Assembly (NCBI GenBank): GCA_003559395.1
Contig: PWLL01000051.1
Span: forward strand, 15,019 to 47,018
Source of the DNA: Candidatus Iainarchaeum sp.
GTDB lineage: Archaea > Iainarchaeota > Iainarchaeia > Iainarchaeales > CSSED10-239
Length of the DNA: 32,000 nucleotides
Reading direction: 5' to 3'
Shown: positions 923-12,599 of the stretch, one piece after another
Position numbering within the stretch: position 1 is the stretch's first letter
How the letters are laid out: every line of letters starts with the position of its first letter
The notes under the pieces: model-generated
Seen by the model: only the letters and a program-made list of their open reading frames with translations
Databases searched by the model: none
Told to the model about the DNA's origin: nothing
Position numbers and translations under genes: made by a program

Positions 923-1246
923 ATGAAAACCATAAATTATGTGTTAATAGGCGTACTAGTTATTTTTGTAGTAATGATTTTTGCATTACAACCAAAATAT
1001 GAAGAAACAATTCCTGAAGACGCAGAATTAATGTTTTGTGAAGTAGATGCAGATTGTGTGCCTTTTCCTGCAGAATGTCATACAAAAACGTGTATAAATC
1101 AAGAATATGCACACTTATATGAAGAACCAGAGGCTTGTACTATGATATTTGATTCAGAAGCAGCATATACTCCTGAATGTTGTGTATGTATAAATAATGT
1201 TTGTCTAAATCAAAATCTTGGTCGAGATATAGAAGATATAGAATAA
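923..1246 (+). CDS. Membrane-anchored or secreted cysteine-rich small protein (hypothetical)
   Basis: AAGGAGG sits 8 nt upstream of the ATG. N-terminal hydrophobic helix (INYVLIGVLVIFVVMIFAL), then an acidic ~80-aa domain with 9 Cys (CEVDADC, CHTKTC, ECCVCINNVC). No family recognised. Confidence 0.6.
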   Translation: MKTINYVLIGVLVIFVVMIFALQPKYEETIPEDAELMFCEVDADCVPFPAECHTKTCINQEYAHLYEEPEACTMIFDSEAAYTPECCVCINNVCLNQNLGRDIEDIE

Positions 1247-2020: not shown

Positions 2021-2080
2021 AGTTTCTTTTTTTTGTAACCTTTAAAAAACATGACAAAAAGAGTTTCTTTTTTTTGTAAC
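2021..2080 (+). repeat. Two perfect 19-nt direct repeats AGTTTCTTTTTTTTGTAAC (2021-2039 and 2062-2080), 41 nt start to start
   Basis: Read directly from the sequence. They lie between the stop at 2012 and the start of the wHTH gene at 2100/2136. Confidence 0.8.
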
Positions 2081-2099: not shown

Positions 2100-2594
2100 A
2101 TGTTTAAAAACATTTTGTTTGTTATATATTTTATTATGGATAAAAAATTAGTGCTATTGATATCTTTTATTTCATTTGTTTGTTTGATGATTTTATTTAA
2201 TTTGTTAATATATGACCAATTATCAGGAAATGCTTGTACATGTCCAAAAGTTGTTTCTCAAAACATGGTCCTTTTTTTTATAACTTTATCAATAATTTTT
2301 ACTGCTTCTTTATTTTATTATCTTTATTCTATATCATTAAGTAAAAAAGAAAAAATAATAGTTCATAATCAAAAAACAATTTTCTCTGTATTAAATGAAG
2401 ATGAAAAAAAAATATTAAAAGAAATAATAAAAAATAACAACGTAATAGAACAAAAAAAACTATCCAAAAAATTTGGCAAAATAAAAACACACAGAATTAT
2501 TAAAAAACTCAAAGAAAAAAACATCGTTGTTATAGAAAAAAAAGGACAGGAAAATATTATTAAACTAATAGAAGGATTTAAGGTGAAAATATGA
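2100..2594 (+). CDS. Membrane-anchored winged-helix (MarR/ArsR-like) transcription regulator with a CxC motif between two TM helices
   Basis: Two TM helices (LVLLISFISFVCLMILFNLLIY; MVLFFITLSIIFTASLFYYLY) flank SGNACTCPK. The C-terminal LNEDEKKILKEIIKNNNVIEQKKLSKKFGKIKTHRIIKKLKEKNIVVIEKKG is wHTH-like. Alternative start ATG at 2136. The stop overlaps the next start (ATATGA). Confidence 0.6.
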   Translation: MFKNILFVIYFIMDKKLVLLISFISFVCLMILFNLLIYDQLSGNACTCPKVVSQNMVLFFITLSIIFTASLFYYLYSISLSKKEKIIVHNQKTIFSVLNEDEKKILKEIIKNNNVIEQKKLSKKFGKIKTHRIIKKLKEKNIVVIEKKGQENIIKLIEGFKVKI

Positions 2595-3772
2595 ATAAAA
2601 AATATCTAATAGTTTTAGTTTTGTGTTTTTTATCTTTATTTATGTTAAGTAACATAACAAACATAAATGCACAAACAACCATAGACCAATCAAAAGAACA
2701 AGTAGAAATAAATTATTTTTATTCGCCTGGTTGTTCAGCATGTGCTCAAATGGAACTTTTTCTTGATAATTTAAAAGAAAAATATGACGATGTAATTTTG
2801 AATAAATATAATCTGCAAAGAGAAAGAAAATTATTTGAAGATTTAATAAAAGAATATAAGGTTCCAGAAGATAGAGTGGGTTATATACCAACAGTATTTA
2901 TAGAAGAAGATTATTTTGTAGGATATGAAAGACAAATAACTAATTATATAGAATATATTGTTGCAACAAAATTAGGAATAGATTTTGATCCAGAAGGACC
3001 TCAAAAACCAGAAGATTTTGAAGAACTAGAAAAAACAAGAGTACAAACAAGTATCTTAGGGATTTGGGACGTAGATGTTGGATTTGAAGATAAATCAATC
3101 TTTTTTGCAACTATTATCTTAGGATTTTTAGATAGTCTGAATGTTTGTTCAATAACTGTTTTATTATTTTTAATAATATATATGTTGTCGATAGGTTCCT
3201 TTAAAAAAACACTTAAAATAGGACTTGTCTTTGTTGCAGTCATCTATATTTTTTACTTTTTAGCTGTTCTTATGCTAACTTCATTATTAAGTATTTTTGT
3301 TTTAAGATATGGATTAATGATTAGAATAATATTATCCATAATTGCAGGACTTGTAGGATTGATACTAATTAAAGACTTTTTCTTTTATGGAAAAGGAATA
3401 TCACTAGAGATACCAAAGTTTGCAAAACCAATTTTAGAAAAATATCTTAAAAAAGCAACAATTGTTTCTACAATAATGTTTGCACTATTAGCATCTTTAG
3501 TAGAACTGCCCTGTACAGCAATATTTCCTTTAATTTTTTCAACTATACTTGCAGAATCAGGAATTGTTGGAGTTTCAAGATTATTGTGGATTGCTCTATA
3601 TAACCTAGTGTATGTTATACCATTACTTGTAATTATTTTTGGAGTTTATTTTTCATGGTTAAAAATAGAACACCTAAACAAAAATATAAACAAATACAAA
3701 AAATGGATGAAATTAATTGCAGGAGCAATGCTTATATTAATTGCATTATATTTTATAATACCTATTATATAA
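2591..3772 (+). CDS. Exported thioredoxin-fold domain fused to a six-TM CcdA/DsbD-type thiol:disulfide transporter core
   Basis: SD AAGGTG. Signal peptide ends in NINAQ. Trx-like FYSPGCSACAQME (CxxC). Six TM helices with single Cys residues in TM1 (LDSLNVCSITV) and TM4 (VELPCTAIFP), the CcdA/DsbD-core arrangement. Confidence 0.75.
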   Translation: MNKKYLIVLVLCFLSLFMLSNITNINAQTTIDQSKEQVEINYFYSPGCSACAQMELFLDNLKEKYDDVILNKYNLQRERKLFEDLIKEYKVPEDRVGYIPTVFIEEDYFVGYERQITNYIEYIVATKLGIDFDPEGPQKPEDFEELEKTRVQTSILGIWDVDVGFEDKSIFFATIILGFLDSLNVCSITVLLFLIIYMLSIGSFKKTLKIGLVFVAVIYIFYFLAVLMLTSLLSIFVLRYGLMIRIILSIIAGLVGLILIKDFFFYGKGISLEIPKFAKPILEKYLKKATIVSTIMFALLASLVELPCTAIFPLIFSTILAESGIVGVSRLLWIALYNLVYVIPLLVIIFGVYFSWLKIEHLNKNINKYKKWMKLIAGAMLILIALYFIIPII

Positions 3773-3794
3773 TGTATTATTTAAGGTGTGACCT

Positions 3795-4526
3795 ATGGGA
3801 CTAATAAAATCAATAAAAAATCTTGGAAAAAATACTCTGTATTATCCAGGATGTTTAACAAAGTTTGTTTTAAAAGACATTAACGATAACTATAAAAAAA
3901 TACTAACAAAGATAGATATAGAATACATTACACTTAAAGACCTAGAAGTCTGTTGCGGAAGTCCAATACTAAACTGTGGACACGAAGAAGAAGCAATTGA
4001 ACTTATTAAAAAAAACTATAAGATTTTTAAAGAACACAGTGTAAATAAAATTATCACCTCTTGTCCAGCATGCTATCATACTTTCAAAAATACATATCCT
4101 AAATTTTTAGAAAAATGGGATCTACAAGTAGAACATATTACTCAAACTATCGATAAAGCAATAAAAGAAAAAAAAATAAATATAGAATCACTAGACATAG
4201 ATCTTACATATCATGACCCATGTCATCTAGGAAGATACTGTGAAATATATCAGGAACCTAGAAATATTCTTAAAAAAATAGGAAATATAAAAGAAATGAA
4301 ACTTACAGAAAACTATTCTTTTTGTTGTGGAGGAGGATCAGGAGTAAAATCAAACTATACACCACTTGCAAACTCAATAGCCAAAGAAAGAATAGAAATG
4401 GCAAAAGAAACAAAAGCAAAATGTTTAACAACAACCTGCCCTATGTGCTATCTAAACTTAAAAGAAAACTCAAAAGATCTAAAAGTAAAAGAAATAAGTC
4501 AACTTATAATAGGTGAAGAAGAATGA
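3795..4526 (+). CDS. lutA: (Fe-S)-binding protein with two CCG cysteine-rich domains (LutA / HdrB / GlpC-like)
   Basis: CCG domain 1: YYPGC...VCCGSP...SCPACYH. CCG domain 2: YHDPCHLGR...FCCGGGSG...TTCPMCY. SD AAGGTG. Size (~243 aa) fits LutA/YkgE-type proteins. The symbol is tentative. Confidence 0.75.
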   Translation: MGLIKSIKNLGKNTLYYPGCLTKFVLKDINDNYKKILTKIDIEYITLKDLEVCCGSPILNCGHEEEAIELIKKNYKIFKEHSVNKIITSCPACYHTFKNTYPKFLEKWDLQVEHITQTIDKAIKEKKINIESLDIDLTYHDPCHLGRYCEIYQEPRNILKKIGNIKEMKLTENYSFCCGGGSGVKSNYTPLANSIAKERIEMAKETKAKCLTTTCPMCYLNLKENSKDLKVKEISQLIIGEEE

Positions 4527-5788
4527 ACTTAGAAAAAGATATTGAAAAATGTCAAATAACTCAAAAATTGATTTTGCCTATAATGTACGACTATAAAAGA
4601 AAAAGAGATCTACTTATAGATGAAAATCAAAAAGAACAAATGAGAACTGAATTGCGAAAAATAAAAGAAAAAGCAATTGATAATATAGAAGAACTTAAAA
4701 AAAAAGCAATAAAAAACTTAGAAGAAAACGGAATAAACGTTATTGAAGTAAAAGATAAACAAGAATTTGAAAATGCAATTAAAAAAATAATTGGTTCTGA
4801 AAAATTAATTACTAAATCAAAATCAAATGTTATAAAAGAAATAGAAATAGAAAAAATGTTAAAAGATAAAGAAATATTAGAAACAGACCTTGGAGATTTT
4901 ATTGTTCAAATAAGTGATGAAAAAAGTTTGCATCCTGTGACTCCAGGAATGCATCTTACACCAGAAAACATTGTAAAAACTATTAAAGAAAAATTTGATA
5001 AAGAAGTTCAACCAACACCAGAAGCAATCGCAGCCTTTGCAAGACAATTTTTAAGAGATAAAATATATAAAGCCAAAGTTGGGTTGACAGGCGCAAACGT
5101 CATTTCTGCTGATGGAAGTATTTTTATTTTAGAAAATGAAGGTAATATTTCTTTAATATCTAGAATCGTTGATAAACATATAGTAGTAACCGGATGGGAT
5201 AAAATAGTAGAAAATAGAGAAGAAGCACAAAAAATTGTTCAAGCGTCAAGCATCTTTGCCTCTGGTCAAAATTATCCTGTATATGTTAGTATAATTTCAG
5301 GACCAAGTAAAACAGCAGATATTCAAAAAAAACTAATCATTGGTGCTCAAGGAGCAAAAGAAGTTCATTTAATATTATTAGATAATAAAAGAAGTGATTT
5401 ACTAAAAACGGAATTTGAAGAACTATTATATTGTATTAACTGCGGAGCTTGTGTAAATCTTTGTCCTGTATATCATCAAATATTTACCAAATATGGAAGT
5501 AAAGACTTTTCAGGACCAAAAGGAGTCATCACATCTTCATTTAGAGAAGATAAACAAAATGCCTATGAAAATGGAGCTTTCTTTTGTACATCCTGTAAAC
5601 TATGTAAAGAAAACTGTCCTGTAAAAATAGATCTATCAGAACTTATAAAAAAACTAAGAAAAAAACTAGCAAAAGAAAAAATAGAACCAGAAAATATTAA
5701 AGAAATGATAGAAAACACAAAAAAATATGGAAATCCTTTTGGAGAAATTGATGAGAAAAAAACACCTGATAAATTTTATTGTTGTTAA
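4523..5788 (+). CDS. lutB: LutB-like iron-sulfur protein (LUD domain plus 2x[4Fe-4S] ferredoxin motifs)
   Basis: The ATGA start overlaps the upstream stop. LUD-type segments: ETDLGDFIVQISDEKSLHPVTPGMH and GLTGANVISADGSIFILENEGN. Cluster motifs: CINCGACVNLCPV and CTSCKLCKENCPV. The symbol is tentative. Confidence 0.75.
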   Translation: MNLEKDIEKCQITQKLILPIMYDYKRKRDLLIDENQKEQMRTELRKIKEKAIDNIEELKKKAIKNLEENGINVIEVKDKQEFENAIKKIIGSEKLITKSKSNVIKEIEIEKMLKDKEILETDLGDFIVQISDEKSLHPVTPGMHLTPENIVKTIKEKFDKEVQPTPEAIAAFARQFLRDKIYKAKVGLTGANVISADGSIFILENEGNISLISRIVDKHIVVTGWDKIVENREEAQKIVQASSIFASGQNYPVYVSIISGPSKTADIQKKLIIGAQGAKEVHLILLDNKRSDLLKTEFEELLYCINCGACVNLCPVYHQIFTKYGSKDFSGPKGVITSSFREDKQNAYENGAFFCTSCKLCKENCPVKIDLSELIKKLRKKLAKEKIEPENIKEMIENTKKYGNPFGEIDEKKTPDKFYCC

Positions 5789-7689
5789 TTTCTTTTTTCT
5801 TCTATTTCTTTTTTAAGATCCTCTATAAAACCTAGTAACTTTTTTTCTCCTAATATTTTATTATCTCTTGTTCTTATGTTTATTGTGTTGTTTTCTTGTT
5901 CCTTATTACCAACAACTAAAATATAGTTTATTTTTCTTAACTCTGCATTTCTTATTTTTTTGTTCATTGTTTGTTGTTTAGGATCTATATCTGTTCTTAT
6001 TCCTTTTTCCTTTAAAGAAGAACAAACTTTGTTTGCATAATCAATATGTCTATCAGCAATAGGAAGAACAATAACCTGAACAGGAGCTAACCATAAAGGA
6101 AACTTTCCAGCAAAATGTTCAATCAAAACACCCATGAATCTTTCAACACTTCCTAAGATTGCACGATGTATCATAACTGGTCTTTTTTTTTCATTATTTG
6201 GCCCTTCATAAGTTAAATCAAATTTTTCAGGCATTTGAAAATCTAATTGTATAGTTCCGCACTGCCATGTTCTTTTAATAGCATCAGTCATATGAACATC
6301 TATCTTAGGACCATAAAACGCTCCGTCTCCTTCATTTATTTTATATTCTTTTTTAGTTTTATCAAGAACATTTTTTAGTTTTTTCTCAGCTAAATCCCAA
6401 AGTTGGTTATCACCCATTGCGTTTGCAGGTTTTGTAGATAACTCCATATGGTATTTAAAACCAAAAGTAGAATATATTTCATCAACAAAATCAATAAGTT
6501 TTTCAATCTCTTCTTCAATTTGTTCTTCAGTACAAAAAACATGCGCATCATCTTGTGTCATAAATCTAACTCTAAACAAACCAGATAAAACACCAGAAAG
6601 CTCATGTCTATGAACTAATCCAAACTCTCCTGCTTTTATTGGAAGATCTTTATAAGAATATTGATGTGCTTTATAGATTAAAAGATTTCCAGGACAATTC
6701 ATTGGTTTTACAGCCTGTATACAATCGTCAATCTTTGTAAAATACATGTTGTCTTTATAATGATTCCAGTGACCAGACTGATGCCAAAGTTTTTCATGTA
6801 AAATCAGAGGAGTCATATTTATTTCATAACCCTCTCTTATCATTATTTTTCTTACAAAACTAACTAACTCATTAAAAATAATCGTACCATTATTATGGAA
6901 AAAAGGCATACCTGGCGCTTCTTCATGAAAACTAAATAAATCAAGTTCTTTGCCAATTTTTCTATGATCTCTTTTTTTTGCTTCCTCTATCTTAAAAACA
7001 AAATCTTGAAGATCTTGTTTGCTTGGAAAAGACACACCGTAAATTCTTTGTAATTGTTTGTTTTTAGAATCACCCTTCCAATAAGCACCAGAAGCACGCA
7101 ATAACTTTACTGATTTTATCTTACCTGTGTCTTTTACATGTGGCCCTCTACAAATATCCTGCAGCTCACCTAACTTGTAGATTGTAACTTGTTTTTCTTC
7201 AATATCTTCAAGAAGTTCAAGTTTGTATGGTTCCTCTTTAAACATTTCTTTTGCTTTATCATAATCAACAACTAATTTTTCAAAAACAAGTTTCTCTTTA
7301 ATAATTTTTTTAATCTCTTTTTCTATTTTTAATAAATCTTCTTCAGTAAAAGGATCTTTATCAAAATCATAATAAAACCCACTATCAATAGCAGGACCAA
7401 AACCAATCTTAACTATAGGAAACAATCTTTTTACAGCTAAAGCTAAGATGTGAGAAGAGCTATGCCAATAAACTTCTTTTCCTTTATCGTGATTAAAAGA
7501 AATGACCTCTATTGTTGAATCTTTATCAACAGTTGTTTTAATATCAGAAAGAATATTATTTATTTTTACAACAACAGCATCTTTTAGTAAACTGTTATCT
7601 ACTTCATTTATAATATCTTGTGCAGATAAGTTTTCTTTAACACTTATTTTTTTTTCTTCTTTGTTGTTTATTATTTTTATGTTTATCAT
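5785..7689 (-). CDS. thrS: Threonyl-tRNA synthetase, bacterial/eukaryotic-type architecture (TGS + HxxxH/CxxxH editing domain + class II core + anticodon-binding domain)
   Basis: HSSSHILALAV and CRGPHV editing motifs. Class II core: VHRHELSGVLSGLFRVRFMTQDDAHVF and HRAILGSVERF. 634 aa. SD-like GTGAT lies upstream of the ATG at 7689. Confidence 0.95.
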   Translation of the reverse strand: MINIKIINNKEEKKISVKENLSAQDIINEVDNSLLKDAVVVKINNILSDIKTTVDKDSTIEVISFNHDKGKEVYWHSSSHILALAVKRLFPIVKIGFGPAIDSGFYYDFDKDPFTEEDLLKIEKEIKKIIKEKLVFEKLVVDYDKAKEMFKEEPYKLELLEDIEEKQVTIYKLGELQDICRGPHVKDTGKIKSVKLLRASGAYWKGDSKNKQLQRIYGVSFPSKQDLQDFVFKIEEAKKRDHRKIGKELDLFSFHEEAPGMPFFHNNGTIIFNELVSFVRKIMIREGYEINMTPLILHEKLWHQSGHWNHYKDNMYFTKIDDCIQAVKPMNCPGNLLIYKAHQYSYKDLPIKAGEFGLVHRHELSGVLSGLFRVRFMTQDDAHVFCTEEQIEEEIEKLIDFVDEIYSTFGFKYHMELSTKPANAMGDNQLWDLAEKKLKNVLDKTKKEYKINEGDGAFYGPKIDVHMTDAIKRTWQCGTIQLDFQMPEKFDLTYEGPNNEKKRPVMIHRAILGSVERFMGVLIEHFAGKFPLWLAPVQVIVLPIADRHIDYANKVCSSLKEKGIRTDIDPKQQTMNKKIRNAELRKINYILVVGNKEQENNTINIRTRDNKILGEKKLLGFIEDLKKEIEEKRN

Positions 7690-7982
7690 ATATTATCACA
7701 AATATTTATATTATATAAATAATAGAGTAGTAATGTTTTTTTATTATATGTTTTTTTGTAAAATGCCTGTTTTGTTAAAAATGTGATTATTTTTGTTTTT
7801 AAAAAGTCTTTTTTTTGTTTTTGTGTATTTTTTGCCTCTTTTTTTTAAAAATAAAGGTTTTAAACGCTTTTTTTTGTTTTTAGTTCGTTATTTACTCTTT
7901 ATTTTTGTTTTTTAAAATAATTTTTATAAATACGTCACGTATTTTTATTTTTTTAAAAAGAAAAAGTAAACTCTAAAAAAAT

Positions 7983-8249
7983 GTGAACACCAAAGCTTCG
8001 AAAAACAGGGTTGCTGACTATCAACCTCCGCATAATCTCGAACCCGCACTCCAAAAAGCAACAACCGGCTAACATACTGCTGCTCCTTTCCAGGCCTGGC
8101 AGGGTTAGATAGCGCGATCGTTCTCCTTGGACGAGTCGTCAGCAACTATGCAGAGAATAATCAAACATCTTATTTTCCTCAGCTTTAGTATAACTCCAGC
8201 ATATGCGGATTTCTGGTACAGGAGACCGCAAACTTCCCAGTCTGTTCAC
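7983..8249 (-). ncRNA. ffs: Signal recognition particle RNA (archaeal 7S-type), ~267 nt
   Basis: GC-rich island. The minus strand contains GCCAGGCCUGGAAAGGAGCAGCA (helix 8 GGAA loop and the SRP54-binding motif, as in the 4.5S core). 5' GUGAACA pairs with 3' UGUUCAC. GUUGCUGAC pairs with GUCAGCAAC (helix 5). Loop GCGG/CCGC complementarity in the Alu domain. TATA-like TTTTTAAACA ~26 nt upstream and a T-run downstream. Confidence 0.85.
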
Positions 8250-8406
8250 AATATAATTAATAAACGATATGTTTAAAAACCCTTTCGTAGATAATATTTA
8301 AAGAGAAAAAAATGTATTTTTTGAGTTATTATTTAAAATAAGCGTTTTTTAGGCTTCTTTTTATATAAACGCAGAAAAATACTTAAAAAAATTGAGGTGG
8401 TTTAAT

Positions 8407-12117: not shown

Positions 12118-12312
12118 ATGAATGTAAAAGAATCTTTAATAAAAGAAATTAATAAAGCTCCTGAGCCAATACTTGAAGAAATATTAAATTATACCATGTA
12201 TCTAAAAATTAAAGTTAATCTACTTAATACAAATAAACCAAACACTTACGAATCTGCTTTTGCAAAAGATTGGCTTACAAAAGAGGAAGATGAAGCATGG
12301 AAAAATTTATAG
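12118..12312 (+). CDS. Putative antitoxin (DUF2281-like) paired with the downstream MazF/PemK toxin
   Basis: Small acidic protein. KESLIKEINKAPEPILEEILNYTMYLK resembles DUF2281 antitoxins. It overlaps the toxin gene by 16 nt. ATG 12118 is preferred over the track's GTG 12109. Confidence 0.55.
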   Translation: MNVKESLIKEINKAPEPILEEILNYTMYLKIKVNLLNTNKPNTYESAFAKDWLTKEEDEAWKNL

Positions 12313-12599
12313 AAGGAGACATTGTTGTTGTTCCTTTTCCTTTTTCTGATTTAAAAAACTTTAAAAAAAGACCTGCTTTAGTTCTTTCAACCTTAGATGG
12401 AGAAGATGTAATTATACTTCAAATAACTTCTCAAAACAGATTAGATAAATATACAATAACTATTAAAAAAGAAGATTTTGAAGAAGGCAAATTAGATATA
12501 GATAGTTTTGTTAGATGTGATAGAATATATACAATTGATAAAAATGTTGTAATATATAAGATAGGCACATTAAAAAATATAAAATTTAATATTATTTAA
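12297..12599 (+). CDS. PemK/MazF-family type II toxin (endoribonuclease)
   Basis: GDIVVVPFPFSDLKNFKKRPALVLS...DVIILQITSQ is the canonical MazF/PemK N-terminal signature. 100 aa. Confidence 0.8.
   Translation: MEKFIEGDIVVVPFPFSDLKNFKKRPALVLSTLDGEDVIILQITSQNRLDKYTITIKKEDFEEGKLDIDSFVRCDRIYTIDKNVVIYKIGTLKNIKFNII

Follow-up and report, generated by a model that had tools for sequence, protein, structure and literature searches.

A conserved four-gene operon of DPANN archaea and CPR bacteria joins a Trx-CcdA-like membrane protein to HdrB/LutA-like and LutB-like Fe-S proteins

Which electron donor or acceptor serves a CcdA-like membrane protein of a tiny-genome archaeon when its gene is packed against genes for Fe-S proteins of the HdrB/LutA and LutB types? 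The question is raised by positions 2100-5788 of the window (the whole 32-kb stretch of DNA analyzed), where the ORF list gives four co-directional genes on the plus strand, here termed g1 to g4. Read from the letters, g1 and g2 share an ATGA overlap at 2591, g3 and g4 share another at 4523, and g2 and g3 are separated by 22 nt (3773-3794), exactly the tight packing claimed in a preliminary description of this DNA. A Shine-Dalgarno-like GGTG motif lies 6 to 9 nt upstream of each of g2, g3, and g4, unlike g1, which has none. An archaeal SRP RNA, a GC content of ~26%, and best protein matches labeled Pacearchaeota or Woesearchaeota are consistent with a DPANN host; electron-transport chains are reportedly missing from DPANN archaea and Patescibacteria (PMC7507113). 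A cysteine-rich exported protein is encoded nearby, at 923-1246.

The product of g2 (2591..3772, plus strand) comprises a signal peptide (residues 1-27), a Trx-fold domain (residues ~35-130) with the motif C48-S-A-C51 (nt 2732-2743), and a CcdA-like domain of six TM helices (residues ~165-393, nt 3083-3769) bearing lone cysteines in TM1 (C186, nt 3146-3148) and TM4 (C308, nt 3512-3514). The Trx domain scored below the Pfam threshold (17.7 versus 23.5 bits), and the Pfam search returned no match for the TM part. The architecture was recovered from an AF2 model (pLDDT 83) containing a Trx fold and a helical membrane bundle, from Foldseek, which retrieved the Trx fold, and from relatives, which match the DsbD-clan Pfam models SfLAP, DsbD_2, and DsbD_TM. 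CcdA (5VKV) was the best PDB match of a model of the TM part alone, with weak scores for CcdA/DsbD membership (E 0.34, TM 0.41). Conservation of the two TM cysteines had been set beforehand as a test, and both are invariant in 33 homologues, as are D181, N184, and E305; in the family, they occur in NPC and ELPCT motifs. The protein shares with CcdA, DsbD, and ScsB the six-TM core with one essential cysteine each in TM1 and TM4, the Pro-Cys motifs, the N-out/C-out topology, and an external CxxC Trx-fold partner, which is fused here and adjacent in split loci, one or the other holding in all arrangements. Fusions of family members to surface domains occur at both ends, which supports the N-out/C-out topology. 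It differs from those proteins in being very divergent (no gathering-threshold match to PF02683 or PF13386), in having a cytoplasmic loop between TM3 and TM4 that is long and highly conserved (KDFFFYGKG..SLEIP), and in its genetically linked cytoplasmic partner, with thioredoxin or thioredoxin reductase replaced by an Fe-S module of the HdrBC type that has a dehydrogenase head.

The TM domain might instead be a thiol-lined metal or metalloid permease of the DsbD/LysE clan, which includes ArsG, CadD, and NicO, in a detoxification or uptake cluster whose Fe-S proteins reduce the transported species. Its weak full-length NCBIfam match to ArsG (E 0.0018) points this way, as do ArsR-type regulators adjoining g2 in four loci, an LMWP/ArsC-like gene within one cassette, and metal ABC or cation-efflux genes near some unlinked loci. 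We regard this reading as very improbable: metal-related neighbors are only sporadic, CcdA is the best fold match, an external CxxC Trx domain together with a single invariant cysteine in the PC motif of each of TM1 and TM4 is the CcdA signature, and metalloid handling would give no reason for the two distinct 2-hydroxyacid-dehydrogenase heads described below.

The domains of the cytoplasmic Fe-S proteins, like those of g2, are as the preliminary description had proposed. The g3 product (3795..4526, plus strand) is HdrB/LutA-like (PF02754, 6e-34) and has two complete CCG motifs, C20-X32-C53C54-X35-C90xxC93 and C143-X33-C177C178-X36-C215xxC218, whose 10 HdrB-type cluster cysteines are all invariant in 33 orthologues. 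The g4 product (4523..5788, plus strand; 1186 homologues at E<=1e-10) is LutB-like, with a LUD domain (residues 60-286, nt 4700-5380; PF02589, 1e-39) followed by an HdrC-like 2x[4Fe-4S] domain (residues ~300-370, nt 5420-5632; Fer4_8, 3e-12) that matches HdrC chains. In LutABC/LldEFG (YkgEFG), LutA corresponds to g3 (two CCG domains) and LutB to g4 (LUD and two [4Fe-4S] motifs), and the genes are likewise adjacent, A then B. The cassette departs from these systems in that g4 lacks the DUF3390 tail and falls under the LutB equivalog cut-off (285 versus 444.8 bits for TIGR00273), LutC is absent from the window and from every related locus, and, in hosts without quinones, the gene linked to the pair encodes a CcdA-like membrane protein instead of a lactate permease or regulator.

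Among the CCG-type disulfide reductases (HdrBC/HdrD and DsrK), HdrB resembles g3 in that both of its CX(n)CCX(n)CXXC motifs are complete (10 Cys), and g3 likewise has an HdrC-like 2x[4Fe-4S] domain next door. Unlike HdrBC/HdrD, the present system lacks HdrA, any flavin-bifurcating partner, and CoM/CoB metabolism, and g3 scores far under the HdrB equivalog cut-offs; its best NCBIfam match is TfrB. DsrK provides a precedent, being a CCG subunit whose substrate at the membrane is a disulfide carried by a protein (DsrC). The substrate proposed here for g3 would differ from those of HdrBC, HdrD, and DsrK in being an intramembrane cysteine pair. The protein aligns over its full length with HdrB and with the CCG region of EtfD, and mycobacterial EtfD (PDB 9ojn) is its closest solved relative by sequence (140 bits with the ortholog profile). 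As proposed for g3 and g4, a Fer4+CCG module there carries electrons from a dehydrogenase system that is soluble to an acceptor in the membrane, but the acceptor is heme b/menaquinone in EtfD's own TM domain, the cluster is a shielded linear [3Fe-4S] relay, and the first CCG motif lacks the second cysteine of the CC pair, which g3 keeps as in HdrB. Judged from sequence, a catalytically competent g3 is favored, since its 10 HdrB-type cysteines include the CC pair missing from the relay-only EtfD (PMC13083937). Still, a CCG domain can do no more than pass electrons to the membrane, as that of EtfD does, and the true acceptor of LutA is unknown.

The four-gene operon shows wide conservation among DPANN archaea and CPR bacteria. 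Among 80 loci found via the CcdA-like gene, a CCG gene adjoins that gene in 41, spanning DPANN, CPR, and other lineages, and usually lies <100 nt downstream of it; gaps of 3 to 100 nt across the linked loci suggest translational coupling. When 7 LutB-like homologues of g4 were drawn without regard to the cassette, 6 lay in the same cassette, with unrelated flanks each time. The linkage of CcdA-like and CCG genes is therefore not due to chance, in agreement with the conserved adjacency that the preliminary description had called for; the contrary possibility, that the LutA/LutB-like pair travels with lutC or lactate permease genes, was borne out in no locus examined, as neither gene was found. 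Neighbor clustering identified only the CCG gene, the Fer or LUD-Fer gene, and g1 as widely conserved neighbors. The head is LutB-like (LUD-Fer) in 27 loci; in the other 14, a GlcD-type FAD protein and a 114-125-aa HdrC-like ferredoxin take its place, reproducing with the CCG protein, as three genes, the domain set of Dld-II, a 2-hydroxyacid dehydrogenase of the Dld-II/GlcDEF/LdhAB (FAD + Fer4 + CCG) type. This alternative is not in the window; where it occurs, the gene next to the CcdA-like gene is again a CCG ortholog of g3. The CcdA-like protein, CCG protein, and di-cluster ferredoxin thus form a constant core, and no CCG gene occurs without a dehydrogenase head. In a split arrangement, the CcdA gene stands between LUD-Fer and CCG, and so is embedded in the unit. 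One cassette (L019) contains an AEC-family organic-acid carrier, a hint at the substrate.

This linkage does not by itself require electrons to pass between the two halves. The Fe-S proteins (g3/g4, or g3 with GlcD-like protein and ferredoxin) could be a plain Lut/Dld-II-type dehydrogenase and g1-g2 an ordinary thioredoxin-fed Trx-CcdA system, brought together by co-regulation (e.g., in thiol or oxidative stress), by horizontal transfer, or because the membrane protein serves the dehydrogenase only as an anchor. Neither partner strictly needs the other nearby: g3/g4 are absent within 10 kb of g2 in 39/80 loci, including the three closest relatives (L001-L003), and one locus (L089) has the g3-g4 pair without g2. 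The top 150 family representatives, of which ten long members were domain-scanned, yielded no CcdA-CCG fusion protein, the correlation of g2 and g3 pairwise distances is modest (Mantel r=0.33, p=0.001), and CCG domains may be noncatalytic relays or anchors (SdhE, PMC2754724; EtfD, PMC13083937). We nevertheless consider independence of the halves unlikely, because the linkage persists where gene order is shuffled, where Trx and CcdA are encoded separately, where the entire head is exchanged, and where genes have passed between archaea and bacteria, yet flanks are never conserved; the short g2-g3 gaps and the CcdA gene lying between two Fe-S genes argue likewise, and a quinone-less cell leaves a Lut/Dld-II-type enzyme without another obvious acceptor. 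Co-variation also counts in favor of exchange between the halves: besides the g2/g3 distance correlation, residues F263 and E283 in the cytoplasmic loop of g2 are better conserved in linked loci.

We therefore favor, with a probability of roughly one-half, the interpretation that the cassette is a thiol-redox module that spans the membrane, is supplied with electrons by Fe-S proteins of its own, and is encoded by a single autoregulated operon. The operon probably provides a route for transmembrane electron transfer that is independent of thioredoxin reductase and quinone. The LUD domain of g4 would oxidize a cytoplasmic 2-hydroxyacid, most likely lactate, and pass single electrons through its two HdrC-like [4Fe-4S] clusters to g3, whose two noncubane HdrB-type clusters would reduce the C186-C308 disulfide of g2 while it faces the cytoplasm; g2 would then relay them outward, as reducing equivalents, to the Trx domain fused to it and on to extracytoplasmic disulfides. 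If so, the module would replace NADPH/thioredoxin reductase/thioredoxin as the donor of CcdA and, in cells without an electron-transport chain, would take over from quinone the role of accepting electrons from a Lut- or Dld-II-type dehydrogenase. Ferredoxin:thioredoxin reductase, in which an Fe-S cluster takes up electrons singly and reduces a protein disulfide by two electrons, with neither flavin nor NADPH, is a conceptual precedent, although its fold is unrelated and it is a soluble enzyme with a soluble thioredoxin substrate. The conserved linkage, the exchangeable heads, and the full HdrB ligand set support the earlier suggestion that the CCG/LutB pair is an electron donor or sink for CcdA; contact between g3 and g2, direct transfer, its direction, and the substrate are inferred, without biochemical data or a model of the complex. 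The two heads parallel the Fe-S lactate dehydrogenases known so far, of which there are two, LldEFG/LutABC and Dld-II, both with a Fer4+CCG output (PMC3949148, PMC3924224). Because LutC, needed in characterized LutABC, is missing, it is unproven that g4 alone oxidizes lactate. No description of a cassette of this composition was found in the searchable literature.

The same complex could also run inward. The measured cysteine pairs of DsbD-type proteins are more reducing than lactate/pyruvate (about -190 mV), and a lactate-fed relay would have to operate at higher potentials than its E. coli counterpart. The external motif is CSAC here and CPHC in most relatives; the latter dipeptide is DsbA-like (oxidizing), fitting an acceptor role but also the reverse direction. 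A DsbA-like Trx domain would then oxidize exported thiols, sending electrons via the CcdA-like pair and CCG protein to a 2-oxoacid (pyruvate to lactate) at the LUD/FAD head, as a quinone-independent substitute for DsbB/VKOR. DSBA/TraF Pfam matches among g2 relatives, fusions of the module to large Cys-containing surface proteins, and the cysteine-rich exported protein at 923-1246 suit this scheme, as does the top match of g3 to the thiol-oxidizing TfrB; TfrB and the Hdr-like systems of sulfur oxidizers are precedents for thiol oxidation by CCG proteins. The reported lack of electron-transport chains in the hosts (PMC7507113) makes DsbB/VKOR chemistry problematic, which we count in the same direction. 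Pyruvate/lactate is, however, less oxidizing than a DsbA-type couple, which would make re-oxidation uphill, and DsbD maintains DsbC/DsbG in the reduced state even though their CxxC motifs also have high potentials, which deprives the motif of diagnostic value. Characterized LutABC and GlcD/Dld-II enzymes operate toward oxidation of their substrates, and all characterized CcdA/DsbD/ScsB proteins are, as far as is known, reductant exporters (Cho & Collet review, cited in PMC8238504). CPR genomes, moreover, often carry MdbA-like oxidoreductases and VKOR for oxidation (PMC6744442). Inward flow is accordingly held to be doubtful, and outward, lactate-fed reduction is preferred.

Control of the operon would fall to g1 (2100..2594, plus strand), a membrane-anchored, DUF7343-like winged-HTH regulator. 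As previously described, two hydrophobic helices flank an extracytoplasmic ACTCP loop (C46-T-C48, nt 2235-2243) ahead of the wHTH; the latter scores below threshold here (DUF7343, 19 versus 27.6 bits; HTH_24 is also weak), and the orthologues are recorded as DUF7343. The CxC is kept in most of ~18 aligned orthologues, all adjacent to g2, and a g1 neighbor is present in 19 loci. Ortholog alignment suggests that the true start is M13 (ATG at 2136). Upstream, a motif scan located two operator-like palindromes on the plus strand, GTTTC-N8-GTAAC at 2022..2039, 5′ of a TATA-like box, and a second at 2063..2080, at the expected transcription start position; the box between them, TTTAAAAAA (2041..2049, plus strand), was read from the letters, and its promoter function is inferred. 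The pattern GTTTCN8GWAAC has only these two matches in 32 kb, versus 0.13 expected. The placement of the second palindrome relative to the box suggests repression; by inference, g1 probably senses the external thiol state and would control the operon via these palindromes. The region upstream of g1 holds the sole conserved cis-element of the cassette, which, with the gene overlaps, the 22-nt gap, and the Shine-Dalgarno-like motifs, speaks for one operon. GTTTC-N8-GWAAC also lies 5′ of the g1 orthologues in L001-L004, the equivalent TATA-like position in L001-L003 reads CTTTATAAA, and in L085 the palindrome adjoins a DUF7343 gene.

The four genes occupy the plus strand of the window as g1 (2100-2594), a membrane winged helix-turn-helix (wHTH) protein with a CxC loop; g2 (2591-3772), an exported thioredoxin (Trx) domain fused to a six-helix CcdA-like domain; g3 (3795-4526), an HdrB/LutA-like protein with two CCG domains; and g4 (4523-5788), a LutB-like LUD protein with two [4Fe-4S] motifs. 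The coordinates assigned to the four open reading frames in the preliminary description agreed exactly with those in the window, and the tight packing it reported could be read directly from the sequence: an ATGA overlap of g1 and g2 at 2591, a 22-nt gap between g2 and g3, and an ATGA overlap of g3 and g4 at 4523. The motif GGTG is located 6 to 9 nt 5′ of the start codons of g2, g3, and g4, and none precedes g1. At their stop codons, g4 and the ThrRS gene, which converges on it, share 4 nt (5785-5788), leaving no space for an intergenic terminator. The window (GC, ∼26%) also carries an archaeal SRP RNA at 7980-8252 (−) and archaeal housekeeping operons encoding FtsZ, deoxyhypusine synthase, RNAP H/B″/B′/A′/A″, and L30e-S12-S7-EF2; its top protein matches are labeled Pacearchaeota/Woesearchaeota. 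A MazF/PemK-like toxin gene lies amid the housekeeping genes at 12297-12599 (+), preceded by small open reading frames that could encode an antitoxin. Directly 5′ of g1 is a gene for a VTT/DedA-family membrane protein (1455-2012, +), and VTT genes are likewise found close to the cassette in two related loci, L087 and, weakly, L032. The Cys-rich exported protein encoded at 923-1246 (+), ∼850 bp 5′ of the operon, is a possible extracytoplasmic thiol client.

One genome per species was scanned with the g2 family; 584 relatives were found, and the best 80 were analyzed by tblastn with the window proteins. The proposed link between g2 and the Fe-S proteins would have failed had the adjacency not been conserved, but a g3 ortholog lies beside g2 in 41 of these best 80 (of 584) loci, downstream on the same strand and in most cases at a distance below 100 nt. 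A LutB-like LUD-Fer gene is present in 27 of the 41 linked loci. In the other 14, it is replaced by a GlcD-type flavoprotein (FAD_binding_4 and FAD-oxidase_C domains, with GlcD as the best NCBIfam match) and an HdrC-like ferredoxin of 114 to 125 aa. No CCG gene lacking such a dehydrogenase head was found among the best 80 g2 loci. The observed gene orders are g1-g2-g3-g4, LUD-Fer/Trx/CcdA/CCG with a divergent g1, g2-g3-FAD-Fer, and g2-g3-Fer-FAD; in the split arrangement, Trx is encoded by its own gene, as a membrane-anchored CPHC/CxAC protein. The loci derive from Pace-, Woese-, Aenigmat-, Nanohalo-, Parv-, and Altiarchaeota, a Heimdallarchaeota metagenome-assembled genome (MAG), and several CPR phyla, with some from MAGs carrying unverified Gammaproteobacteria or Methanosarcinales labels. 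By all-against-all clustering, the widely conserved neighbors of g2 are limited to CCG, Fer/LUD-Fer, and g1. When g4 homologs were instead sampled without regard to g2, selected solely by the length of their contigs, a g2-like gene and g3 preceded g4 in six of seven cases, with unrelated housekeeping flanks in each; the bacterial contig L089 carries g3-g4 without g2. Homologs of g4 number more than 1,000 at an E value of ≤1e-10, and the cassette is widespread. It was also possible that the LutA/LutB-like pair simply travels with lutC and lactate transport genes. No second LUD gene was found in the window, the 80 tblastn loci, or the Pfam-annotated genes of seven further loci, and no lactate permease was found in the window or any locus examined.

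Counting against the linkage, g2 occurs without the module in 39 of the best 80 loci, and the three closest relatives (L001 to L003) contain g1-g2 only, without g3 or g4 nearby. No alternative dedicated partner was apparent in the 39 unlinked loci, whose neighbors (DUF134, DUF5320, NifX-like, and MinD-Fer4 proteins, cysteine desulfurase, and ArsR) are only sporadic. A metal or metalloid function of the cluster is a minor possibility. A fusion of CcdA and CCG domains was absent from the top 150 g2-family representatives, in which every extension examined is extracellular. Pairwise distances of g2 and g3 lend weak support to their association (Mantel r = 0.33; P = 0.001), and F263 and E283, in the long conserved cytoplasmic loop between TM3 and TM4 of g2, are more conserved in linked loci, again a weak signal. 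We consider it improbable that g2 and the Fe-S module are co-localized without direct electron exchange.

Searches with domain models upheld the assignment of two CCG domains to g3 and of a LUD domain plus a di-cluster ferredoxin to g4; the domains ascribed to g2 fared less well, the Trx domain being subthreshold and the transmembrane domain having no Pfam hit. PF02754 matches g3 in two stretches (6e-34), corresponding to two CX(31-39)CCX(35-37)CXXC motifs that provide ten cluster ligands and include a CC pair in both. All ten cysteines are invariant in 33/33 orthologs, covering both head types. Profile alignment over the full length of g3 gave 140 bits with mycobacterial EtfD (9ojn) and ∼80 bits with HdrB. 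EtfD, however, has C-T in the first CCG motif, where HdrB and g3 have C-C. The C-T site of EtfD binds a shielded linear [3Fe-4S] relay cluster, whereas Hdr contains two solvent-accessible, disulfide-cleaving noncubane [4Fe-4S] clusters (PMC13083937). By this comparison, the cluster ligands of g3 are those of a catalytic HdrB-type site, a feature that disulfide chemistry requires but that is insufficient as proof of it. The HdrB equivalog cutoffs were not reached by g3 (TIGR03288, 51.8 versus 345; NF041780, 23.9 versus 450). Unlike in Hdr, no HdrA accompanies g3, and an HdrC-like domain is present solely as the C-terminal part of g4, the Fe-S domain of which matches HdrC chains.

Comparison with LutABC/LldEFG was similarly partial. 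The two CCG domains of g3 satisfy the LutA-type criterion, and g4 has the LUD and Fer4_8 domains of LutB but no DUF3390 match; TIGR00273 scored 285 bits on g4 against a cutoff of 444.8, over model positions 18 to 383 of 432. LutC, the LUD-only subunit, is encoded with A and B in the known systems and is missing from the window cassette. The two alternative heads of the cassette are counterparts of the two known types of Fe-S lactate dehydrogenase, LldEFG/LutABC and Dld-II. A Fer4+CCG output module is common to both types, and thiol/disulfide acceptors have been proposed for these enzymes (PMC3949148); putative heterodisulfide reductase is one annotation given to LutA (PMC3924224).

An AF2 model of g2 (pLDDT, 83) has a signal peptide followed by a Trx fold and a bundle of membrane helices. 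In the N-terminal domain, helix 1 begins with the CxxC and a cis-Pro loop is present, as expected of a Trx fold, and Foldseek matched this domain to many thioredoxins with a probability of 1.0 (TM-score normalized to target, 0.58 to 0.69), although its Pfam Thioredoxin score was 17.7 versus a threshold of 23.5. Among 33 g2 homologs, the CxxC is conserved and the cis-Pro position, P100, is nearly invariant. The lone cysteines noted in TM1 and TM4, C186 and C308, proved invariant in 33/33 diverse homologs, in the settings D-x-x-N-P-C and E-L-P-C-T, respectively. The corresponding motifs D[GS]xNPC and E[LI]PC[TA] surround the membrane cysteines in ∼75/86 loci; the TM1 motif of the window g2 itself is NVC, not NPC. 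In the AF2 models, six helices form a bundle, with breaks where the Cys residues lie.

The membrane domain of the window g2 did not match PF02683 (DsbD_TM) or PF13386 (DsbD_2) at curated thresholds, and sequence-profile searches of the PDB for this domain gave nothing or Trx matches only. Its relatives matched models of the DsbD clan (SfLAP, 14/33; DsbD_2, 4; DsbD_TM, 1). Foldseek searches with the full g2 model were swamped by thioredoxins, so a membrane-only model built from natural CcdA-only homologs was used. The CcdA NMR structure 5VKV ranked first of 350,542 PDB chains, in a full-length alignment with 22% identity and a probability of 0.80 that was nonetheless weak (TM-score, 0.41; E value, 0.34). 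The CcdA/DsbD criterion of six transmembrane helices with both termini extracytoplasmic is met by g2, which has a signal peptide and a Trx domain at its N terminus and family members with surface fusions at both ends. The family comprises 3,136 clusters at 50% identity. In many members, long extensions that contain no domains other than surface-type ones (cohesin, MopE, subtilase, LamG, fn3 arrays, and NosD/β-helix) adjoin the module at one end or the other. These fusions at both ends independently support an N-out/C-out topology and indicate that the module is used as the membrane base of large surface proteins. We treat g2 as CcdA-like in its working; formal membership in CcdA/DsbD is only partly met, and electron transfer to the external Trx domain is inferred. 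The model of the ArsG permease also matches the g2 membrane domain, weakly but at full length. The largest fusion proteins in the family reach 2,987 aa; examples with cohesin+MopE, subtilase S8, LamG+SBBP, fn3 arrays, or NosD/β-helix are P0286, P0315, P0316, P0324, P0262, P0341, and P0364. In these, the module perhaps acts in cis as a redox chaperone for proteins resembling adhesins or proteases.

In the model that we prefer, the head would oxidize a 2-hydroxyacid, probably lactate, an activity that is itself inferred, and electrons would go from the HdrC-like clusters to g3. On the cytoplasmic side, the noncubane clusters of g3 would then reduce the cysteine pair of the CcdA-like domain, C186-C308, and g2 would pass the reducing equivalents on to its external Trx domain. 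The module would be both a dedicated donor for the relay and an acceptor for Lut/Dld-II-type enzymes in organisms that have been reported to lack electron-transport chains (PMC7507113). We assign this outward, lactate-type model a probability of roughly 0.5, and the direction of flow remains unsettled. The dominant CPHC motif of the Trx domain is DsbA-like and would equally suit oxidative folding, in which electrons would flow in reverse and end on a 2-oxoacid sink. The same motif also suits a high-potential acceptor downstream of lactate. High-potential CxxC proteins such as DsbC are nonetheless kept reduced by DsbD, so CPHC is not diagnostic of direction. We judge reverse flow unlikely as an explanation of the cassette. 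A more far-reaching interpretation, which we hold only tentatively and as rather doubtful, is that the cassette performs a previously unrecognized, cysteine-only electron exchange with the outside in cells without an electron-transport chain or quinones. It would be either a lactate:extracellular-disulfide oxidoreductase, with which episymbiotic DPANN/CPR cells use host or environmental lactate and dump electrons on external disulfides or oxidants, or, reversed, the first quinone-independent machine for de novo disulfide generation, with a 2-oxoacid as terminal acceptor. In both forms, an HdrB-type noncubane Fe-S site would act directly on an intramembrane protein cysteine pair.

Family models match g1 only weakly (DUF7343, 19.2 versus 27.6; HTH_24, 14.2 versus 21.9); a PF24034 match was recorded for its orthologs in the related loci L082/L083. 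Orthologs of g1 are found with g2 in 19 loci, and the CxC in the loop between the transmembrane helices is kept in most of the ∼18 aligned g2-adjacent orthologs. From the positive-inside rule and a wHTH in the cytoplasm, this loop is assigned to the outside of the cell. Two GTTTC-N8-GTAAC palindromes upstream of g1, at 2022-2039 and 2063-2080, are the sole matches in the window (expected, 0.13) and flank a TATA-like element, TTTAAAAAA, at 2041-2049. The form GTTTC-N8-GWAAC occurs in one to three copies upstream of g1 in L001 to L004, as well as beside a DUF7343 gene in L085. This conservation speaks for autoregulation driven from one promoter region, as inferred from sequence alone, and a single region is consistent with a cluster that has no intergenic space. 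The operon also yields a candidate for a membrane-bound, redox-sensing regulator in archaea, along with its putative operator.

No description of a CcdA-CCG-LutB/GlcD cassette was found in the full-text literature searched, which included papers on LUD/Lut systems, extracytosolic redox with DsbD, and CPR/DPANN protein families and disulfide-bond formation; the corpus is incomplete, and this absence is not proof. Every part is of a known kind, and the combination and its implied chemistry are new. A large part of microbial diversity belongs to DPANN archaea and CPR bacteria, which reportedly have no respiratory chains, raising the questions of what powers their extracytoplasmic thiol chemistry, e.g., in giant Cys-containing surface proteins for host attachment, and which electron acceptor serves the Fe-S dehydrogenases of the Lut and GlcD types in these organisms. 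A conserved cassette joining a thiol relay to a dehydrogenase is one testable answer to both. If true, the CcdA/DsbD paradigm would gain a new electron input, from a 2-hydroxyacid to an HdrBC-like module; HdrB-type chemistry would extend to the disulfide of a membrane protein; and LutA/LutB-like proteins, whose acceptor was never established, would acquire a defined partner.

Several other genes were observed near the cassettes. In the Shapirobacteria locus L019, a split AEC-family carrier (Mem_trans, PF03547; 6620-7560), possibly an organic-acid (substrate) transporter, lies between Trx-CcdA and CCG. A small secreted β-rich protein without a Pfam match, with a conserved CxxC near its C terminus (CYGC/CSSC), was seen only in CCG-linked cassettes (L047:9490-9942, L064:3914-4351, L008:6857-7264 [−], and L014, ∼4937-5335 [−]); it could be a partner or a client outside the cell. 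Genes for DUF134 (HTH), DUF5320, NifX-like (PF02579), and ferredoxin-containing MinD-type ATPases, in which the ferredoxin is an insert, recur at g2 loci, especially unlinked ones (L002:6478-6753 [−], L003:9053-9289 [−], L029:1403-1741, L008:8672-9535 [−], L088:1-562, and L090:2138-2422), and NifU or cysteine desulfurase genes are near other g2 loci (L082, L084, and L023); these neighbors may hint at a connection with Fe-S or metal-cofactor handling. ArsR-family HTH genes adjoin g2 in four loci (L011:8086-8376 and equivalents in L019, L041, and L061), and an LMW-phosphatase/ArsC-like gene is found within the cassette at L073:10048-10461. In the Pacearchaeota locus L082, a GNAT acetyltransferase gene (7442-7999) is located between CCG and LUD-Fer.
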